Assembly: GCA_024710355.1 (NCBI GenBank)
Contig: JANJUX010000012.1
Coordinates: 64,001-92,440 of the forward strand
DNA: 28,440 bases
From: Candidatus Rifleibacteriota bacterium
GTDB taxonomy: Bacteria > Muiribacteriota > Ozemobacteria > Ozemobacterales > Ozemobacteraceae
Direction: 5' to 3'
Below, in pieces: positions 3,177-26,444 of the stretch. A program made the translations under genes and the position numbers. The first letter of the stretch is position 1. The number at the start of each line of letters is the position of its first letter. The notes beneath the pieces are model-generated. The model worked only from the letters and a program-made list of their open reading frames with translations. It was not told where the DNA came from and did not search any database.

Positions 3177-3272
3177 TCAGGAACATAACACTTTAAGCGG
3201 TCTGCAACAAGCCATTTTCTGCCTGAACGGTGCCTTTGCGGGAATGGCCCGGAAGAATGACCGTGCCATCAT
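3177..3272 (-). CDS. Candidate small Cys-containing peptide (31 aa: MMARSFFRAIPAKAPFRQKMACCRPLKVLCS). It may be a precursor or substrate for the adjacent rSAM/SPASM enzyme.
   Basis: I translated this ORF by hand from the minus strand between the MFS stop (3283) and the rSAM start (3143). It falls below the six-frame track length cutoff. It has a basic N-terminal half and a C-terminal CC...C cluster. There is no convincing Shine-Dalgarno, so this is speculative. Confidence 0.25.
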   Translation of the reverse strand: MMARSFFRAIPAKAPFRQKMACCRPLKVLCS

Positions 3273-3282
3273 CGTGGCATAT

Positions 3283-4593
3283 TCAAGAATTATTGAGGTT
3301 TTCGGCAGCCTGCTTTTCTCTCTGGATACGGGCTCTGTTTGTCCAGGTGTGTGGCAGAAGCACGAGCATCAGCCAGCCGATCAGCATCAAAACGATAGCC
3401 AGACCAAATGCCGCCTGAAAAGCGGCTGTTTCTCTGGTGCCGTCAGGTGATACCCAGCCGATGATCAGGCCCATGACCCACATTCCGAGGCCGCCGCCGA
3501 CGAAACCGGTGAAATTGTAGACGCCGAGGGCGGTGCCGGCCATCGAGGCCGGAAAACACTCGCGTGCAATGCCGAAACTGATCGAAAAGAAGCCGGCGCA
3601 GAAACCCATAACCGCGAGCAGCGGAATCAGATAGCTCTGCATTGTTGAAGTGGCGAAAACCAGAGGTACCCAGCACAGCAGATAGCCGAACATTCCGGCT
3701 GTCAGAACCGTGTGGCGCCGCTGAACCGATTTCCCGGCCAGAATGCCGGAGACGATTGCCCCGAGCATCAGGCCAAGGGCAAGCCAGGTCAGGGCATAGC
3801 CGACCGATGTGTCTGGCATCTGATAGATGCGCTTGAGAAATGGGCCGGCCCAGAGGCCCTGAAAACTGATTATCGTGGTTTCGAAAGCGAAGAAGTAGAG
3901 AGTTACGGCCCAGAATCTTTTTGATTTGAGCATGCCGCGCAGGCCTGAACGCTCGCCCGGTTCCACTGTTTCGTCAGAGTCGTGGTGCTTTGCAGAACCG
4001 GCTTCTGGCCCACTTTCTTTTGGGCGTTCAGATTCTGGTGGCTGGTCTTTGACCACGAGCCAGACAAATATCACCAGAAGCAGGGTAATGACGCTGACGA
4101 GTTCCATCGTGGCCCGCCAGCCCCAGACGCTTTTTATTACAGCCAGCGGCCATGTCGAACTCAGTGCGCCAAGGTTGCCTACTGCCAGCATCATGCCGGT
4201 CATAAATACAAAAGATTCGCCGCCAAACCAGCAGCCCATAAGTCTGAGCGCCGGCACATAAACGCAGCCGACCCCGGCACCGACCAGCCAGCGCGATAGA
4301 ACCGCCGTTTCGAATGAAGCCGCCTTGCCGAAAGCAAAGGCGCCGAGGCTTGCCAGCAGCAGAAACAGTGATATGGTCTTGCGGGCACCCCAGCGGTCTG
4401 AAAGGATGCCGACCGGTATCTGTACCGTTGCATAGCCAAGCAGATACATCGATGAGAGAAAACCGAGTGCTGCCGGTTCAAGGCCAAGGTCGGCGGTGAG
4501 GTCGCCGGCCATTACCGCAGTGCAGAACCGATGAAACATGACAAAGAAATAGGCAATCGCCAGAACCCAGAATATGGCCCACTTTCTTGTCAT
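3283..4593 (-). CDS. Major facilitator superfamily transporter, 12-TM type.
   Basis: MFS motif A (GILSDRWGARKT), multiple hydrophobic helices and a central cytoplasmic loop rich in charged residues. RBS AAGGAAAG precedes the ATG. Confidence 0.85.
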   Translation of the reverse strand: MTRKWAIFWVLAIAYFFVMFHRFCTAVMAGDLTADLGLEPAALGFLSSMYLLGYATVQIPVGILSDRWGARKTISLFLLLASLGAFAFGKAASFETAVLSRWLVGAGVGCVYVPALRLMGCWFGGESFVFMTGMMLAVGNLGALSSTWPLAVIKSVWGWRATMELVSVITLLLVIFVWLVVKDQPPESERPKESGPEAGSAKHHDSDETVEPGERSGLRGMLKSKRFWAVTLYFFAFETTIISFQGLWAGPFLKRIYQMPDTSVGYALTWLALGLMLGAIVSGILAGKSVQRRHTVLTAGMFGYLLCWVPLVFATSTMQSYLIPLLAVMGFCAGFFSISFGIARECFPASMAGTALGVYNFTGFVGGGLGMWVMGLIIGWVSPDGTRETAAFQAAFGLAIVLMLIGWLMLVLLPHTWTNRARIQREKQAAENLNNS

Positions 4594-4744
4594 TGCGGCT
4601 TTCCTTGTTAATGTTCTCTTTACTTAAGCTTGCCTGTAAAGAAGCGTTTATGCAACTATTTTCTGATAGGACTGCCGGTTTTCCGCTTCGGGTATTTCTG
4701 TTACAATCGTCTGCATAATTTTGCTCAGACAGGGAAGAAATCTT

Positions 4745-7224: not shown

Positions 7225-8498
7225 ACCAGCGAGCAAACCGTGGTATGACACTGCTTGAACTGCTGATCGGCTTTTTTCTGCTGGTTTCGGCCTCGATTAT
7301 TTTTTTTCAGGCCATGCACAGCTTTAAAAAAGAAACCACCTTTACTTCGGAAAATTTCCTCGCGGCTTCTCTGACTGAAAAAGTGCTCGAGCAATGCTAC
7401 CAGGAGGCCGACCTGAACCCGCATGGCCTGCAGGCAATCGGTCTGGCCGATGCCGACGGCGCGCTCTACCCGTTTTCGACCTTTGTGACTGACAGAGAGA
7501 CAATTTTCTTTTCGAACCCGGGCATAACCGACACCGAAACCCCTAATCTACACAAGGTTCTCAAAGAAAATTTCAACCTCAAGGTGTCTGGTGAGAAGAA
7601 ACCCGGGTTTTATGAAATCAACGCCGGTTTTAACTGGAAAGCTGGTTCAGGCAAGGGCGGTTCGTTTGCCTCTACCCGTATTCTCTCGTTCACCGGCGAA
7701 AAGGAAGTGCTGACCACCTTCGCTTTGTCGGATACCGAGGTGAAAAACCGCCTGGTAAAAGATGTGTTCAACGCGCCCGGTGCCGCCCTCGGCAGCAAAG
7801 TCAGCAGTGCCGGTGCCGAAAAACTGCTGCTCAGCGTCGGGCATGTCTATTACACCTGCCTCGACTGGTTGAATTCTTCCGAGTTCAAAGACCGCTATCA
7901 GAAAGCCCGCAGCCTCGAAATTATTTCGTCACCTGCATCTGAAGACTATGCTGACTGCACCCGCATGTATTTTGAGCTCGCCAGAGACATGCTGCATCTT
8001 ATGATGAGTCTGAAAGGGCATGCAGAAGAGGCGGGCAAAGACATCAGCTTTCTTGCCGCCCTTCCGAAAACTGAGAAATACATCGTCGAGAGTCGTATCG
8101 AACGCGGTGGCCTGTTTTATCGCCAGCTGCGCCGTCTTTTCTTCAATTGCCTTTTCAGGGTTGCTGAGCGTTACGAGCAGCAGAGCAGGCATTCCGGGTC
8201 GCCAAAGCAACAGCGCCAGCTGATTGTGCGGCTGTTCAACATCAACCGGATTCTCTATGCCAATCGCAGCTTCAGCGATGAGGTTCCGGCAGCTGAGATC
8301 GAAAGCCGTTACCGCGATTTCATCACGAGAATGCAGACGGCGTTTCGTGATGCCGACCCTTCGATTTTTCGCCTTGCCGACCAGGAAAAGACGTTTATCA
8401 CCGCCGGCAATCTCAAAGACCGCTTTTTCATGTTGAAGTTGACCGGCGAGCTTTTTGCCACCATCGATAAATTTCTGACGGTTCTCGACCCGGCCTAA
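7221..8498 (+). CDS. Large prepilin-type N-terminal domain protein (minor pseudopilin-like), 425 aa.
   Basis: MNQRANRG|MTLLELLIGFFLLVSASIIFF matches the prepilin peptidase motif. Its start overlaps the upstream pseudopilin stop (ATGA), implying translational coupling. Confidence 0.75.
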   Translation: MNQRANRGMTLLELLIGFFLLVSASIIFFQAMHSFKKETTFTSENFLAASLTEKVLEQCYQEADLNPHGLQAIGLADADGALYPFSTFVTDRETIFFSNPGITDTETPNLHKVLKENFNLKVSGEKKPGFYEINAGFNWKAGSGKGGSFASTRILSFTGEKEVLTTFALSDTEVKNRLVKDVFNAPGAALGSKVSSAGAEKLLLSVGHVYYTCLDWLNSSEFKDRYQKARSLEIISSPASEDYADCTRMYFELARDMLHLMMSLKGHAEEAGKDISFLAALPKTEKYIVESRIERGGLFYRQLRRLFFNCLFRVAERYEQQSRHSGSPKQQRQLIVRLFNINRILYANRSFSDEVPAAEIESRYRDFITRMQTAFRDADPSIFRLADQEKTFITAGNLKDRFFMLKLTGELFATIDKFLTVLDPA

Positions 8499-8520
8499 AG
8501 GTTTTCTGCCAGACAAAAAT

Positions 8521-8547
8521 ACCCGGCCTTCACATTCCGGGCCGGGT
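8521..8547. terminator. GC-rich hairpin (ACCCGGCC / GGCCGGGT, 11-nt loop) between convergent genes. The T-tract is on the minus strand, so it most likely terminates the ALDH transcript.
   Basis: Perfect 8-bp stem. On the minus strand it is followed by ATTTTTG. The plus-strand tail is weak (TAAATAC). Confidence 0.45.
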
Positions 8548-8627
8548 TAAATACGCTTTAAGTGGCTGATGCGGTTATTTTCGCGTCAATACTTCACAGG
8601 ATGTCTTAAATGCGGCAATCAAGACGT

Positions 8628-10250
8628 TCAGAACAGAAAGTCGGTGGTCAGAAAGCTCGACAGGTCGTCTTTGAGAATTTTCGTGATCAGCTGCTTGTTG
8701 TCGTCACTGTCTTTGGCAGCGACCAGGGTTCTGATCGAGAAAACCCGCAGAGCGTCGGAGACCGAAAGGGTTCCTTCGGCTGAATCCTTGCGGCCGGTGA
8801 ACGGAAAGGTGTCGGGGCCGCGCTGGCACTGGCTGTTGATGTTGACGCGGCAGACCTGGTTAACCAGCGGGTCGATCAGTGAAGCCATCTGCTTCGCATC
8901 CTTGCCGAAAATACTGACCTGCTGGCCATAATCCGATTCGACGACATAGCTGATCGCTTCTTCGATCCGATTGTAGGCTGCAATCGGTATGACCGGGCCG
9001 AACTGTTCTTCGCGATACAGTTTCATTTTATCGTTCACCGGGTAGACAACGGCGGGAAAGAACAGAGAGTCGGAGAAAACGCCGCCCGAAGGGTTGACGA
9101 TTCTGGCGCCGTTTGCCTGGGCATCTTTGATAAGATCGGTAAGGCGCTCTGCTTTGCCGGGCTCAGCGAGCGGAGTAATCTGGGCGCCCTTTTCCCAGGG
9201 CAGGTTGATCTGCAGCTTTTCTACTTCGGCCGAGAATTTTGCCAGAAACGCATCGGCAATTGAAGAATGCACAAAGATCATTTTCAGGGCGGTGCAGCGC
9301 TGGCCATTGAATGACAGACTGCCGAGAAGGCATTCTTTTACCGCCAGGTCGATATCGGCATCCGGAAGAATGATGCAGGGATTCTTGGCATCGAGACCGA
9401 GCACGCAGCGCAAGCGGTGCGGTTTCGGGTGTGATTTGCGGATAACGTCAGAAACACGGCTGGTGCCTATAAAAGCCAGAACATCGACTTTGCCTGAAGC
9501 CATCATCGGTGTGATTACGGTCTGGCCACTGCCATAAACCGTATTGATTACCCCTTTCGGAAATGAATCGCGAAAAGCTTCGAGCAGCGGCTGAAAAAGC
9601 AGCACGCCGAGTTTCGGCGGCTTGAAAACGACAGTGTTGCCCATGATCAGGGCAGGGATCAGCGTCGTAAAAGTTTCATTGAGCGGGTAATTGAACGGGC
9701 CCATGCAGAGTACGACGCCAAGGGGCGCCCGCCTGATCTGGCCGATGATCTTCTGCTGAATGGTAAAGCGCGATGAAGTGCGGTCGAGCTCTTTCAGAGC
9801 TTCGACCGTGTCGCGGATATAGTCGATGGTGCGGTCGAATTCCTTCTGGGCATCGGCAAGGTTTTTGCAGATTTCCCACATCAGCAGGTTGACGACGCGG
9901 TCACGGCAGCCGAGCATGCGCTCGACAAAATTCTGAACGTGCCTGATGCGTTCACCAACCGACATTGTCGGCCATTTTCCCCGACCGTTGTCATAGGCCG
10001 CAGCCGCTGCATTCAGAGCCTCGGTGGCGGCCTGTTCAGACATGCTTGGCACGCTGCCGAGTTTTACCTGTTCAGGCGCGTTGCCATTTCTGATTCTGAC
10101 CGGCGAACTGATTTCCTGCATCGGGCCCTGCCACTGCCGGATTTCTCCATCGATCAGATATTCGCGCTGTTCGATCCGCGGTGCTTTGAACTCAGTCGGA
10201 ATATTTGCATCCTGCGGGAAAAGGGCCGCAAGGGTTTCGCTTTTCAACAT
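8628..10250 (-). CDS. NAD(P)-dependent aldehyde dehydrogenase family protein.
   Basis: ALDH signatures: catalytic Cys motif FNGQRCTALK, EEQFGPV, and the LGLDAKNP glutamate-box region. It is 540 aa, and GGAGGAACCCG precedes the ATG. Confidence 0.9.
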   Translation of the reverse strand: MLKSETLAALFPQDANIPTEFKAPRIEQREYLIDGEIRQWQGPMQEISSPVRIRNGNAPEQVKLGSVPSMSEQAATEALNAAAAAYDNGRGKWPTMSVGERIRHVQNFVERMLGCRDRVVNLLMWEICKNLADAQKEFDRTIDYIRDTVEALKELDRTSSRFTIQQKIIGQIRRAPLGVVLCMGPFNYPLNETFTTLIPALIMGNTVVFKPPKLGVLLFQPLLEAFRDSFPKGVINTVYGSGQTVITPMMASGKVDVLAFIGTSRVSDVIRKSHPKPHRLRCVLGLDAKNPCIILPDADIDLAVKECLLGSLSFNGQRCTALKMIFVHSSIADAFLAKFSAEVEKLQINLPWEKGAQITPLAEPGKAERLTDLIKDAQANGARIVNPSGGVFSDSLFFPAVVYPVNDKMKLYREEQFGPVIPIAAYNRIEEAISYVVESDYGQQVSIFGKDAKQMASLIDPLVNQVCRVNINSQCQRGPDTFPFTGRKDSAEGTLSVSDALRVFSIRTLVAAKDSDDNKQLITKILKDDLSSFLTTDFLF

Positions 10251-11073: not shown

Positions 11074-11329
11074 ATTTCTGTCCTCCTGTGGCGTCTGCCG
11101 CCCTGTTTCTGTTTTTATGCAGCGCCACCAATTTAATACCAATTTAGCTTACCTTTTCTGCCTCGACAAGAAAAATGAGCATCCAACCAGTCTGGTTCCT
11201 TGTCGAAAATGGATTCGAGGACAGGCCGCCGAAGCAGGGAGCTTGAATCTTTATTGCCGAGCCTGCACTGCAATAGAAAAAAACTGCAACTCAAATGCAG
11301 TAATGGTCCGGAAGAATGATCTGCAAAGT

Positions 11330-23723: not shown

Positions 23724-25576
23724 ACCACTTTTTTCTCCTTGACCGGTATCGTAACCTTAAGCAGAGTACCTTTGCCCTTGTGAGATTCAATGCTCAATCT
23801 GCCTTTAATCAGGGCCGCCTGCTGTTTCATGAGAGCCAGGCCCAGGCCTTTTGCTGAAGATGTAAGCGAAGAGTTAAAGCCTTTGCCATTGTCGCTGACC
23901 TCAAGGGAGAAAACCGTCTTCTTCATGACAACGCTGACTCGCACCCTGGTCGCCTCCGAGTGCTTATGGATATTGTGAAGTGCTTCCTGAAGAATGCGAT
24001 AGATGATGATGTCTTTTTCTTTGAAACTTGCCTCATCAACATTGTTGTGAAAAAAGCGAATCTGAAGCTTTTCTGTCATCGAAGATTCAACCAGTTCCTT
24101 TATTGCCGGAATCAGACCGGCATACTTCAGACCCGGTGGCGAGAGTTTGTGTGCGAGAGTCCTGGTGTCACTGATTATCTTGTCGAGTTGCGACCTGATT
24201 TTTGCAAAAGCAGTGCGCATCAGGTGGTCTTTCTCGGGCAGAACTGAAGACGTGACGACCGTAAAAAGCTTTAAAGCGATGAGGGCCTGGCCGAACTCGG
24301 AATGAAGCACCTGAGAAATTCGGCTTCTTTCTTCTTCCTGGGCTATGATAATTCGTCTCGGAAGGTCCTGAAGCGAGGCAAATAAAAGGTTGTGACTGGT
24401 AATGTCTCTTTCGGTCGTTGCGAGGGCGAAAATTTTTCCATTCTGAATCAGGCGGGTTGCCTTTAGGCAGATGTCCAGTATGCTGCCGTCTCTGGCTATT
24501 CGCCTGGTTTCGAATGGTTTGATCAATACACCTGTGCGAACATCATCGAGCAAGTGGACTGTTTGTTGCTTGAGACGGGCAGGAGTCAGGTCGAATATCG
24601 ACATTTTTATCGCATCAGCAGCAGAATAACCATACATTTTTTCTGCCATCTGGTTCCAGGCCATGATGTTGCCTTTTAAATCCATCAGACAGATAGCATC
24701 GTTTGAATCTTCGATGACCGTGATCAGTCTTTGCCGGGAAGGGTTCTCATCGACCAAGCATCTGAAATTCTGCAGAACCTCATTGCTGAGCGACTCGCAC
24801 GTGCCCGCCGCGAGGTCATCTGCGCAGCATGTCTCGCCGACCTTGATACCACTGTTCATCGCTGTCCGGTTCGCGACGATTACTTTTCGATTTCTGTCGA
24901 CAAGAACTGCCGATTGCGGCAGCAGACTCAGAAGCATTGCATTGAGATCGGCGCTTTCTTTGAGAGCAATTGCATTGAGTTTGCTTTCGTTAATATCAGT
25001 GAACGAAACCCGGATATTGGTGGTGGTGCTTTCTTCACAGCAGATAGCCATGCTTTCAAGATGGGCAAAAAATGGCCTGCCGGCAACTTTTTTTAATTTT
25101 AGATCACAGGACTCATGAGCTTCGCTTTTTCGCACCTTCGCAAGGTAGAAATACAGGGCGTCCTGGAATTCCGGGGTAACAAAATCGGTAAACGGGTGGT
25201 GCAGAACCTGTGGCTTATCGACACCGAGAAGCCTGGCTGCAGTCAGGTTCGCTTCGATGATTTTTCCCTTTTCGCCGAGGGTAATATAGCCAACCGGTGC
25301 GAAATCATACAGGTCTTTGTATTTTGCCTGAACCCGCTCGGCATTTTCATGGGCCAGACGAAGATCTTCGTTTTGCATTTCGAGTTCGATCTGGTGAATA
25401 CGGAGTTCTTCGATAACCCTCTCCGGGGCCATTGCATTGTCATTGCCCGTGTAATCAGGCTTATTTCGCAAATACTTGACGGCGCGCCTTCGCAGCAAAG
25501 TTTTGCCCACAGTTTTTTTCTTCACGAGTTCCCCACCGTCCTTCCCGATTTCTGGCTCATTTCGAGCAGTCGGCAA
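23720..25576 (-). CDS. Cytoplasmic multi-PAS sensor histidine kinase, HisKA_3/NarX-type with HATPase_c.
   Basis: No TM segments. Several PAS-like blocks. HisKA_3 dimerisation/phospho-acceptor region RRIIIAQEEERSRISQVLHSEFGQ (conserved His). The C-terminal ATPase has N, G1 (DNGKGF) and G2 (GLGLALM) boxes. The start is uncertain, with no clear SD at 25576 or at the alternative Met at 25432. Confidence 0.85.
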   Translation of the reverse strand: MPTARNEPEIGKDGGELVKKKTVGKTLLRRRAVKYLRNKPDYTGNDNAMAPERVIEELRIHQIELEMQNEDLRLAHENAERVQAKYKDLYDFAPVGYITLGEKGKIIEANLTAARLLGVDKPQVLHHPFTDFVTPEFQDALYFYLAKVRKSEAHESCDLKLKKVAGRPFFAHLESMAICCEESTTTNIRVSFTDINESKLNAIALKESADLNAMLLSLLPQSAVLVDRNRKVIVANRTAMNSGIKVGETCCADDLAAGTCESLSNEVLQNFRCLVDENPSRQRLITVIEDSNDAICLMDLKGNIMAWNQMAEKMYGYSAADAIKMSIFDLTPARLKQQTVHLLDDVRTGVLIKPFETRRIARDGSILDICLKATRLIQNGKIFALATTERDITSHNLLFASLQDLPRRIIIAQEEERSRISQVLHSEFGQALIALKLFTVVTSSVLPEKDHLMRTAFAKIRSQLDKIISDTRTLAHKLSPPGLKYAGLIPAIKELVESSMTEKLQIRFFHNNVDEASFKEKDIIIYRILQEALHNIHKHSEATRVRVSVVMKKTVFSLEVSDNGKGFNSSLTSSAKGLGLALMKQQAALIKGRLSIESHKGKGTLLKVTIPVKEKKVV

Positions 25577-25723
25577 AGCCTGGGTGATTTCGGGCCATTA
25601 TGAATAAAGGGTGCATCTATGGCCTTTGTAATATCTGATTTACCGTCGTCAGGCCAAGACGCTGATGCTTTTGCTGATTGCATATACATTCTACCACGCC
25701 GGCAAAAAACAGGCCAAATAATT

Positions 25724-25733
25724 CGATGAAGGC
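25724..25733. repeat. Left copy of the 10-bp direct repeat CGATGAAGGC (putative target-site duplication).
   Basis: Identical to 25883-25892. It abuts the left TIR. Confidence 0.5.
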
Positions 25734-25882
25734 CAGGGCAAACGCATTAAATTCATGGATTCCGGGTCTACGCCCGGAATGACGGAACCGGATTACGTCA
25801 TTCCCGCGTTTATGCCCGGAACGGGTACAGGCGGGAATCTGGTCCAATTGAGATTCTAAGGTGTTTTAATGCGTTTGCCCTG
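25734..25882. mobile_element. Non-coding MITE-like element, 149 bp, with perfect 18-bp terminal inverted repeats (CAGGGCAAACGCATTAAA / TTTAATGCGTTTGCCCTG) and nested internal palindromes.
   Basis: I verified the TIRs by reverse complement. The element is immediately flanked by a 10-bp direct repeat CGATGAAGGC (25724-25733 and 25883-25892), consistent with a target-site duplication. It has no coding capacity. Confidence 0.55.
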
Positions 25883-25892
25883 CGATGAAGGC
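25883..25892. repeat. Right copy of the 10-bp direct repeat CGATGAAGGC (putative target-site duplication).
   Basis: Identical to 25724-25733. It abuts the right TIR. Confidence 0.5.
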
Positions 25893-26117
25893 CTTCTGAA
25901 AAAATGTCACAAAACATAATTGGGGAGCCGGGAAGTTACAACTGCAGAAGTTTCGGTTTCAATGCATAGTTTGAATTTGTCATTTTTATGAATATTTCAG
26001 AGGATTTTACCTGTAAGAAAACAGCGCTATTCTTAAATTACCACCAGAAGAAGCGCTTTAGCTGCAACCAGGCATTTAAAAAGCGCTGAAAACGATGAGG
26101 TGGAAGGAGGAAGGCGT

Positions 26118-26444
26118 ATGAATATTAGAAACTGGCTGTTTTTGGGGGTTTGCGCAATTGCTGTCGCGGGAGTCTTTCTGATTGTCGGTTGTTGCAAAAA
26201 GACCGGCATTGTTGAAAATCCGGCGGCCGGCCCTGCTGAGAAGGCCGGGGCCGCACTGGATAAGGCCGTCAAAACGACAGGTGAAGAGGCCGGAAAGCTT
26301 GCAGAAAAGGTAAATACAGAGGCCAGAGAAGCTGCCGGCAAGGCGATCAACAAAACCGGTCAGGCTCTTGAAAAAGCTGGTGACGGCCTGGCAAAAACTG
26401 GTGCAGATCTGCAGGAGAGCCTGGGTAATGCAATAAACCCATGA
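26118..26444 (+). CDS. Small lipoprotein with Lys/Ala/Gly-rich amphipathic repeats (LEA/YtxH-like low-complexity).
   Basis: Lipobox LIVGC after a hydrophobic leader (MNIRNWLFLGVCAIAVAGVFLIVGC). Repeats EKAGAALDKAVKTTGEEAGKLAEKVNTEAREAAGKAINKTGQALEKAGDGLAKTG. RBS GGAGGAAGG precedes the Met at 26118. Confidence 0.6.
   Translation: MNIRNWLFLGVCAIAVAGVFLIVGCCKKTGIVENPAAGPAEKAGAALDKAVKTTGEEAGKLAEKVNTEAREAAGKAINKTGQALEKAGDGLAKTGADLQESLGNAINP

Follow-up and report, generated by a model that had tools for sequence, protein, structure and literature searches.

Between a two-component system on the minus strand (a PAS/HisKA_3/HATPase histidine kinase and a LuxR-type response regulator) and a divergent operon on the plus strand (a small ORF, a CBM48/AMPK1_CBM protein, and a triple-BON protein) lies a 149-bp segment dense in inverted repeats. 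This locus raises the question of whether the segment is a mobile element that was inserted here or a structure that belongs to the region – and, if it was inserted, whether it altered the regulation of its neighbours. An original prediction, which described the same divergent gene arrangement, proposed a MITE placed by transposase-mediated insertion. We analyzed the segment within the whole 28,440-nucleotide stretch of DNA (hereafter the window) and against related and unrelated genomes and metagenomes. We conclude, with a probability of roughly 90%, that positions 25734-25882 are a non-autonomous MITE with the terminal inverted repeats (TIRs) of an ISAs1-family insertion sequence. This reading is supported because the ends match those of autonomous ISAs1 elements, a 10-bp duplication flanks the segment, related genomes carry the empty site, and sibling copies exist at other loci – the evidence on which the predicted transposase-mediated insertion now stands.

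Anatomy of the element

The features of the element and its immediate borders are as follows.

25734-25882: probable MITE, 149 bp, non-coding, with ISAs1-type ends
25724-25733, unstranded: left copy of the target-site duplication, 10 bp, CGATGAAGGC (repeat search and sequence reading)
25734-25751, plus strand: left TIR, CAGGGCAAACGCATTAAA, 18 nt, an ISAs1-type end that begins CAGGG (repeat search)
25752-25864, unstranded: non-coding core of the MITE, comprising hairpin 1, a central palindrome, and hairpin 2 (repeat search, folding)
25759-25780: core hairpin 1, ATTCCGGG-TCTACG-CCCGGAAT
25776-25804: core central palindrome, GGAATGACGGAA/TTACGTCATTCC
25800-25838: core hairpin 2, ATTCCCGC...GCGGGAAT, its loop containing about 20 extra nt
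25865-25882, minus strand: right TIR, the reverse complement of the left TIR (repeat search)
25883-25892, unstranded: right copy of the target-site duplication, 10 bp, CGATGAAGGC (repeat search)

The outline drawn in the original prediction – perfect 18-bp TIRs, identical 10-bp repeats at both borders, and a non-coding, palindrome-rich core – was borne out by sequence reading and by repeat searches. The TIR arms are complementary at 18/18 nt (100%) and are separated by 113 nt according to the repeat finder. When up to three mismatches were allowed, the 18-mer occurred at just these two sites in the 28.4-kb window, against a chance expectation of 0.01, and 0/100 shuffled windows contained two or more matches. 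Likewise, CGATGAAGGC occurs in the window only at 25724-25733 and 25883-25892, in both cases abutting a TIR arm. The insertion boundaries thus read ...AATTCGATGAAGGC followed by CAGGGCAAACGCATTAAA on the left and ...TTTAATGCGTTTGCCCTG followed by CGATGAAGGCCTTC... on the right.

The repeat finder formally reported an 11-nt direct repeat, CGATGAAGGCC, at 25724-25734 and 25883-25893, since the left arm opens with a C, which is also the first base past the right repeat. The 10-bp duplications and CAGGG-starting ends of the ISAs1 family favour parsing these letters as a 10-bp repeat followed by an 18-nt end, which we adopt as the probable arrangement.

The only ORF that overlaps the element, 25617-25847 on the minus strand, has no Pfam match. 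A tblastn search of the 28-kb window found no similarity to ISAs1 transposases, and the window contains no second copy of the element. Two intergenic 24-mers (3237-3260 and 11296-11319) superficially resemble the core and proved on reading to be unrelated to it. The element is shorter than ~600 bp, lacks a transposase gene, and has TIRs with an abutting target-site duplication, as a MITE does. At 149 bp and without a transposase, it is therefore incapable of autonomous movement.

The ends are shared with ISAs1-family elements in many phyla

We scanned a collection of species-representative genomes with the 18-mer CAGGGCAAACGCATTAAA and obtained matches in at least 119 DNA stretches from many phyla. 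Hosts among the matches listed are Bacteroidota, Methylococcales and other Gammaproteobacteria, Betaproteobacteria, cyanobacteria, Verrucomicrobiota, Desulfobacterota, Leptospiraceae, Fibrobacteres, a Tenericutes MAG, and four Riflebacteria MAGs. When occurrences were brought into a common orientation, identity between them ended directly inside and directly outside the 18-mer. Such an abrupt loss of identity at both borders is the signature of a transposon end.

An inverted partner was then sought at each listed locus, with up to three mismatches allowed. Among the matches listed, at least eight TIR pairs lie 1191-1267 bp apart, seven of the eight having perfect (10/10) flanking direct repeats, and at least 30 further pairs delimit short, transposase-less elements of 120-752 bp, with flanking repeats that agree at 10/10 positions in eight and at 8-9/10 in 13. 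The long elements each contain a single ORF of 366-384 aa. Those of L067 and L054 match the NCBIfam model NF033564, 'ISAs1 family transposase' (E 1.6e-117 and 2e-124), and also Pfam DDE_Tnp_1_assoc and DDE_Tnp_1. Elements of this ISAs1 type were recognized at L067 5720-6959, L054 2571-3837, L025 5933-7163, L085, L113, L114, L120, L053, and L009, and they are found in at least eight phyla among the matches listed. Counted across listed TIR-bearing loci, an ISAs1-family transposase gene adjoins the end at 20/119.

The 18-mer is therefore the end of very widespread elements that include 1.19-1.27-kb insertion sequences (ISs) encoding an ISAs1 transposase, and related TIRs do exist. The original prediction had also supposed that a cognate autonomous element exists elsewhere. 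Such elements do occur in other genomes, one of them a Riflebacteria MAG (L025) with a 1231-bp element, a 10/10 duplication, and a 375-aa transposase ORF; the window itself holds none. Consistent with membership of the same family, whose published hallmarks are inverted repeats of 14-22 bp beginning CAGGG and direct repeats of 10 bp (PMC11946415), the window element has an 18-nt inverted repeat starting CAGGG and a 10-bp direct repeat.

The ends of L067-type elements equal the 18-mer exactly or with one mismatch, and their transposases are just 41-55% identical to the L067 reference. Such conservation of the ends against such divergence of the transposases seems unusual for an IS family, among loci that were themselves chosen by an exact match to the 18-mer.

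No parent IS sharing subterminal sequence with the window element emerged, as BLAST comparison to all recovered loci returned the TIR and a few nt. The longest match beyond the TIR covers 35 nt at 88.6% identity and joins the right subterminal region (25848-25882) to L071 5385-5419 and L018 6880-6914, which are 590-594-bp non-autonomous elements in Methylotuvimicrobium and Methylococcales genomes. This match hints at a conserved subterminal site or at common ancestry of that end. Because the full-length ISs share only the TIR with the window element, we assign it to no specific parent IS; and because its core has no similarity to the interior of any recovered IS, it is not a simple internal-deletion derivative of any of them.

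Related Riflebacteria carry the empty site

The CBM48 protein encoded beside the element is 76% identical to a protein of Ca. Riflebacteria bacterium GWC2_50_8. Six contigs that encode this protein (L125-L130) have the same arrangement as the window, with the histidine kinase and response regulator on one strand and the small ORF, CBM48, and BON genes on the other. Their intergenic DNA aligns to the window on both flanks and has nothing opposite the element, which is missing from all relatives recovered (L124-L130). Once 25734-25892 is removed from the window, the alignment runs without a gap over the junction, where AATTCGATGAAGGC followed by CTTCTGAA in the window stands opposite AATTCAAGAAATGC followed by TGTCTGAA in the relatives (or, at another extent of the same alignment, AATTCGATGAAGGC followed by CTTCTGAAAA opposite AATTCAAGAAATGC followed by TGTCTGAATG). 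The relatives carry a single, diverged copy of the target, CAAGAAATGC. Since the alignment is colinear and gap-free after excision, the relatives represent the empty site with one diverged target copy, and the orthologous comparison points to an insertion in the lineage of the window.

A 69-aa ORF is called over the empty site in three of these contigs (L125 4882-5091, L128 1512-1721, and L129 1445-1654, all on the minus strand), and its counterpart in the window, 25617-25847 on the minus strand, would be broken by the MITE. We considered whether the element had disrupted a small gene and rejected this idea, as the relatives and the window do not share its reading frame (1-nt indels, ~11 similar residues). 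The ORF is probably a spurious call.

Copies of the short form occur at unrelated loci

A scan of metagenomes with a 22-mer covering the inner TIR and the left subterminal region returned five contigs that represent four loci (L131, which is the same as L135; L132; L133; and L134). These sibling copies are 75-91% identical to the window element over 110-153 bp that include the core, and their flanks are unrelated to it. All four loci are intergenic. The element is thus present at four further loci across genomes and communities and, since the same hairpin core recurs at unrelated loci, the short form itself must have spread. All refuting conditions that the original prediction had set, checked in turn, spoke for an insertion.

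The copies differ in their state of preservation. The L131/L135 copy is 129 bp long, with a short hairpin-2 loop and an 8/10 duplication; the ~20 extra nt in this loop are common to the window element and L134. The right end of the L133 copy has decayed, and the right half of the L134 copy is replaced by further hairpins of the core motif. Recognizable ends are kept in all four, although TIRs or target duplications are degenerate in some (L132, L133, and L134), and the element family may therefore have lost its activity. L132 and L134 derive from the same assembly. L132 is a Riflebacteria contig. Its copy lies within 8449-8770 (reverse strand) and is flanked by a cardiolipin-synthase-like gene and by a radical-SAM gene; the former encodes a product that shares 78-80% identity with proteins of Ca. 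Rifleibacterium amylolyticum and GWC2_50_8. In L136, a related MAG whose corresponding protein is 89% identical, the element of the L132 locus is absent (4474-4713).

Short-read assemblies of the source community offer a further, indirect hint of repetition. Contigs from two runs (L001, L002, and L003) end at 25777 and resume at 25812, and no independent short-read contig spans 25778-25811. Both break points fall some 31 nt, about one k-mer, within the block that is conserved among family copies (~25744-25842), which fits a repeat-induced assembly break of the kind expected of repeated sequence. As the breaks fall one k-mer inside the conserved core, we infer at least one further copy of the core in that community. 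A metagenome scan with the central 29-mer palindrome, GGAATGACGGAACCGGATTACGTCATTCC, gave 0 matches, probably because assemblies break there. The join over 25778-25811 rests on the assembly that produced the window, on the matching duplications, and on synteny; an assembly artefact is unlikely.

The element lies in a poorly conserved spacer between two conserved blocks

To place the insertion relative to the neighbouring genes, two flanking features are relevant.

25688-25717, minus strand: candidate sigma-70-type promoter of the histidine-kinase gene, TTGGCC-18-TAGAAT with TG, outside the element (consensus match only)
25960-26118, plus strand: conserved block, candidate promoter or leader of the small-ORF/CBM48/BON operon (alignment with relatives)

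The -35 hexamer of the candidate kinase promoter is 16 nt from the left TIR. This is the sole promoter-like site in 25300-26300, and the block that contains it is kept in the relatives. The scan of the same interval found no promoter-like or terminator-like site inside the element and no terminator-like site anywhere in the interval. A potential outward promoter at the TIR (TTTAAT after TG, 25862-25870), which is similar to an extended -10, was rejected: its second position is not the key A, and the scan did not call it.

On the operon side, the conserved block begins ~68 nt beyond the right target-site duplication. These ~160 nt show very strong conservation in every relative, L124 among them, where the neighbouring gene on the other side is a different one (CheB/CheR). 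The block contains an inverted repeat (AGCGCTTTA...TAAAAAGCGCT) and has no Rfam match. We regard it as a candidate promoter together with a structured leader.

Where the histidine-kinase gene starts is ambiguous. The longest ORF begins at a TTG at 25576 (618 aa), the gene caller's product begins near 25432 (570 aa), and the alignment of the relatives suggests a conserved GTG near 25525 that is preceded by a G-rich stretch. The choice among these alters the distance between the MITE and the gene.

The element sits between conserved blocks on the kinase side (~25560-25720) and the operon side (25960-26118), in the least conserved stretch of the region. The original prediction had suggested that the insertion may have rewired regulation. 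The lack of a promoter or terminator inside the element leaves that suggestion unsupported, and the position in a poorly conserved spacer speaks against it as well. A more specific form of the idea is that the MITE has been co-opted, either by separating the kinase promoter from sites upstream of it or by placing a hairpin as a barrier between the two divergent promoters, and would thereby alter how the two-component system or the CBM48/BON operon is expressed. The position of the left end, 16 nt upstream of the -35 hexamer of the region's only promoter-like site, agrees with this idea. The L132 copy has a comparable position: its end precedes a near-consensus promoter (TTGACT-16-TATCAT) by 15 nt, and this promoter is also kept in the MITE-less L136. 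However, two similar spacings do not make a pattern, and the 15-16-nt distance to a -35 hexamer in these two copies is possibly coincidental. A spacer of low conservation between two conserved blocks is also where neutral insertions are tolerated. We consider co-option unlikely; the insertion most likely has little or no regulatory effect and resembles a tolerated, near-neutral one.

The core resembles a REP-like hairpin doublet

The core consists of two head-to-head hairpins built on the motif GTCATTCC-S-G-S...GGAAT (where S is C or G). Within the window this motif is present only inside the element (25756-25842). The same motif forms solo or clustered hairpins without TIRs in the Riflebacteria contig L134 (2785-2843 and 11376-11395), and on this account the core resembles a REP-like doublet. 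In the surrounding regions of L134 (2770-2850 and 11200-11400), one hairpin pair adjoins an intrinsic-terminator-like hairpin. The MITE as a whole resembles a doublet of REP-like hairpins set between ISAs1 ends, and its core is not a deleted transposase gene.

Other short elements that have the 18-nt ends carry very different cores. L102 832-909, from a Deltaproteobacteria MAG, has a comparable hairpin (GTCATTCCGGC...GCCGGAAT) inside the same ends. Short elements with these ends are also found in the Riflebacteria MAG nDJH6bin19 (L011 3437-3594, L073, and L078), where the cores of L011 and L073 are long G+C-rich palindromes (GGTAGGGCGCGACCGCCGGGCGCGCC...), and the Riflebacteria MAG nDJH14bin3 has two 130-bp copies ~1 kb apart (L097 3613-3742 and 4755-4884). 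The same ends thus seem to have repeatedly framed differing hairpin cargoes.

A bolder proposal would make of this a class of chimeric MITE that has not been described, in which the conserved 18-bp end of one ISAs1 subgroup repeatedly frames host REP-like hairpins, lands preferentially ~15 nt upstream of -35 boxes, and modulates the adjacent genes – here the two-component system and the CBM48/BON envelope operon. We hold this proposal, taken as a whole, to be improbable.

Two further accounts concern how the short form arose. The element could be the remnant of a full-length ISAs1-family element whose interior was deleted in situ, so that the short form never transposed. Its TIRs and target duplication are indeed those of full-length elements, and the window lacks another copy. 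Against this, the core is unlike any transposase gene or IS interior, the same hairpin core stands between like ends at four unrelated loci, and the flanks of the siblings show that these copies are not segmental duplications of this locus. In-situ deletion is thereby largely refuted and very unlikely.

Alternatively, the segment could be a REP/BIME-type palindrome cluster, spread by a RAYT-type enzyme or by recombination, in which case the outer repeats would be incidental. The two motif hairpins of the core, the solo hairpins without TIRs in L134, and the replacement of half of the MITE copy in that contig by more such hairpins would all suit a cluster of this type. Incidental outer repeats are hard to reconcile with an outer 18-mer identical to ISAs1-family ends, with a pair that is expected by chance ~0.01 times per window, with a flanking repeat of exactly the 10 bp of the family, and with the retention of recognizable ends in all four other copies. 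Moreover, REP elements are not known to make target duplications. We consider this account very improbable.

The remaining notion, that the segment is a structured cis-regulatory element or a small RNA, ancient and conserved, that belongs to the divergent promoter region, is almost certainly wrong: the very stable predicted fold of the whole element as single-stranded DNA (-42 kcal/mol, z = -8.3) is a trivial consequence of its TIRs and hairpins, Rfam gives no match for the whole window at gathering thresholds or for 25550-26130 even at E <= 1, and the empty sites in the orthologous region of every relative recovered refute it.

A model for the insertion

These results suggest a simple course of events for the non-autonomous MITE that we favour. 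A full-length element elsewhere in the cell would have supplied an ISAs1-family DDE transposase in trans, and this transposase would have bound the two 18-bp ends. The element would then have been placed in a cut with a 10-bp stagger at CGATGAAGGC, within the spacer that separates the histidine-kinase and response-regulator genes from the small-ORF/CBM48/BON operon, and repair of the stagger would have yielded the direct repeats.

The locus provides a clean, documented case of an ISAs1-derived MITE in Riflebacteria (Rifleibacteriota), a little-studied candidate phylum. The element accounts for the break that short-read assemblies of this population show here, and it draws attention to an insertion of 159 bp, specific to this lineage, that lies directly upstream of a candidate promoter for the histidine kinase. 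The end CAGGGCAAACGCATTAAA, which is common to ISAs1-type elements and to many MITE families in distant phyla, is a useful annotation signature. The current understanding of transposition is unchanged by these results. No earlier description of ISAs1-derived MITEs, of such Riflebacteria insertion sequences, or of this TIR turned up in the literature searched.

Comparison with known systems

The closest known systems are the ISAs1-family ISs, such as ISAs1 of Aeromonas salmonicida, ISArsp11 of Arthrobacter, and the Francci3_2330/2941 elements of Frankia. The window element shares with them the CAGGG start, an inverted repeat within the range of 14-22 bp, and the 10-bp duplication, and full-length elements with exactly its 18-mer encode NF033564 transposases. 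It differs from them in being 149 bp long, in having no transposase, and in an interior that is unrelated to the recovered IS interiors. ISArsp11 is 1306 bp long with the inverted repeat CAGGGCTGATGCAAAGTCG and a 10-bp direct repeat, and the 18-mer of the window diverges from this published repeat after CAGGGC (PMC6305408).

Bacterial MITEs – which are defined as multi-copy elements of <600 bp flanked by inverted repeats (PMC2779907) – offer the nearest match in form. Like the MaeMITE families of Microcystis, the Correia elements of Neisseria, and RUP of Streptococcus pneumoniae, the window element is small and non-coding, has TIRs and a target duplication, lies between genes, folds strongly on itself, and is found at several unrelated loci. 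It is set apart by its ends and 10-bp duplication, which link it to ISAs1. Correia elements duplicate TA, and RUP is linked to IS630-Spn1.

The likeness to REP/BIME sequences lies in the short G+C-rich stems, the head-to-head pairs, and the solo copies beside terminators in a related genome. REP/BIME sequences lack long TIRs that match an IS and lack a target duplication, whereas the window element has both. A MITE of an IS family is a well-known kind of element, and the one described here is ordinary in kind and real.
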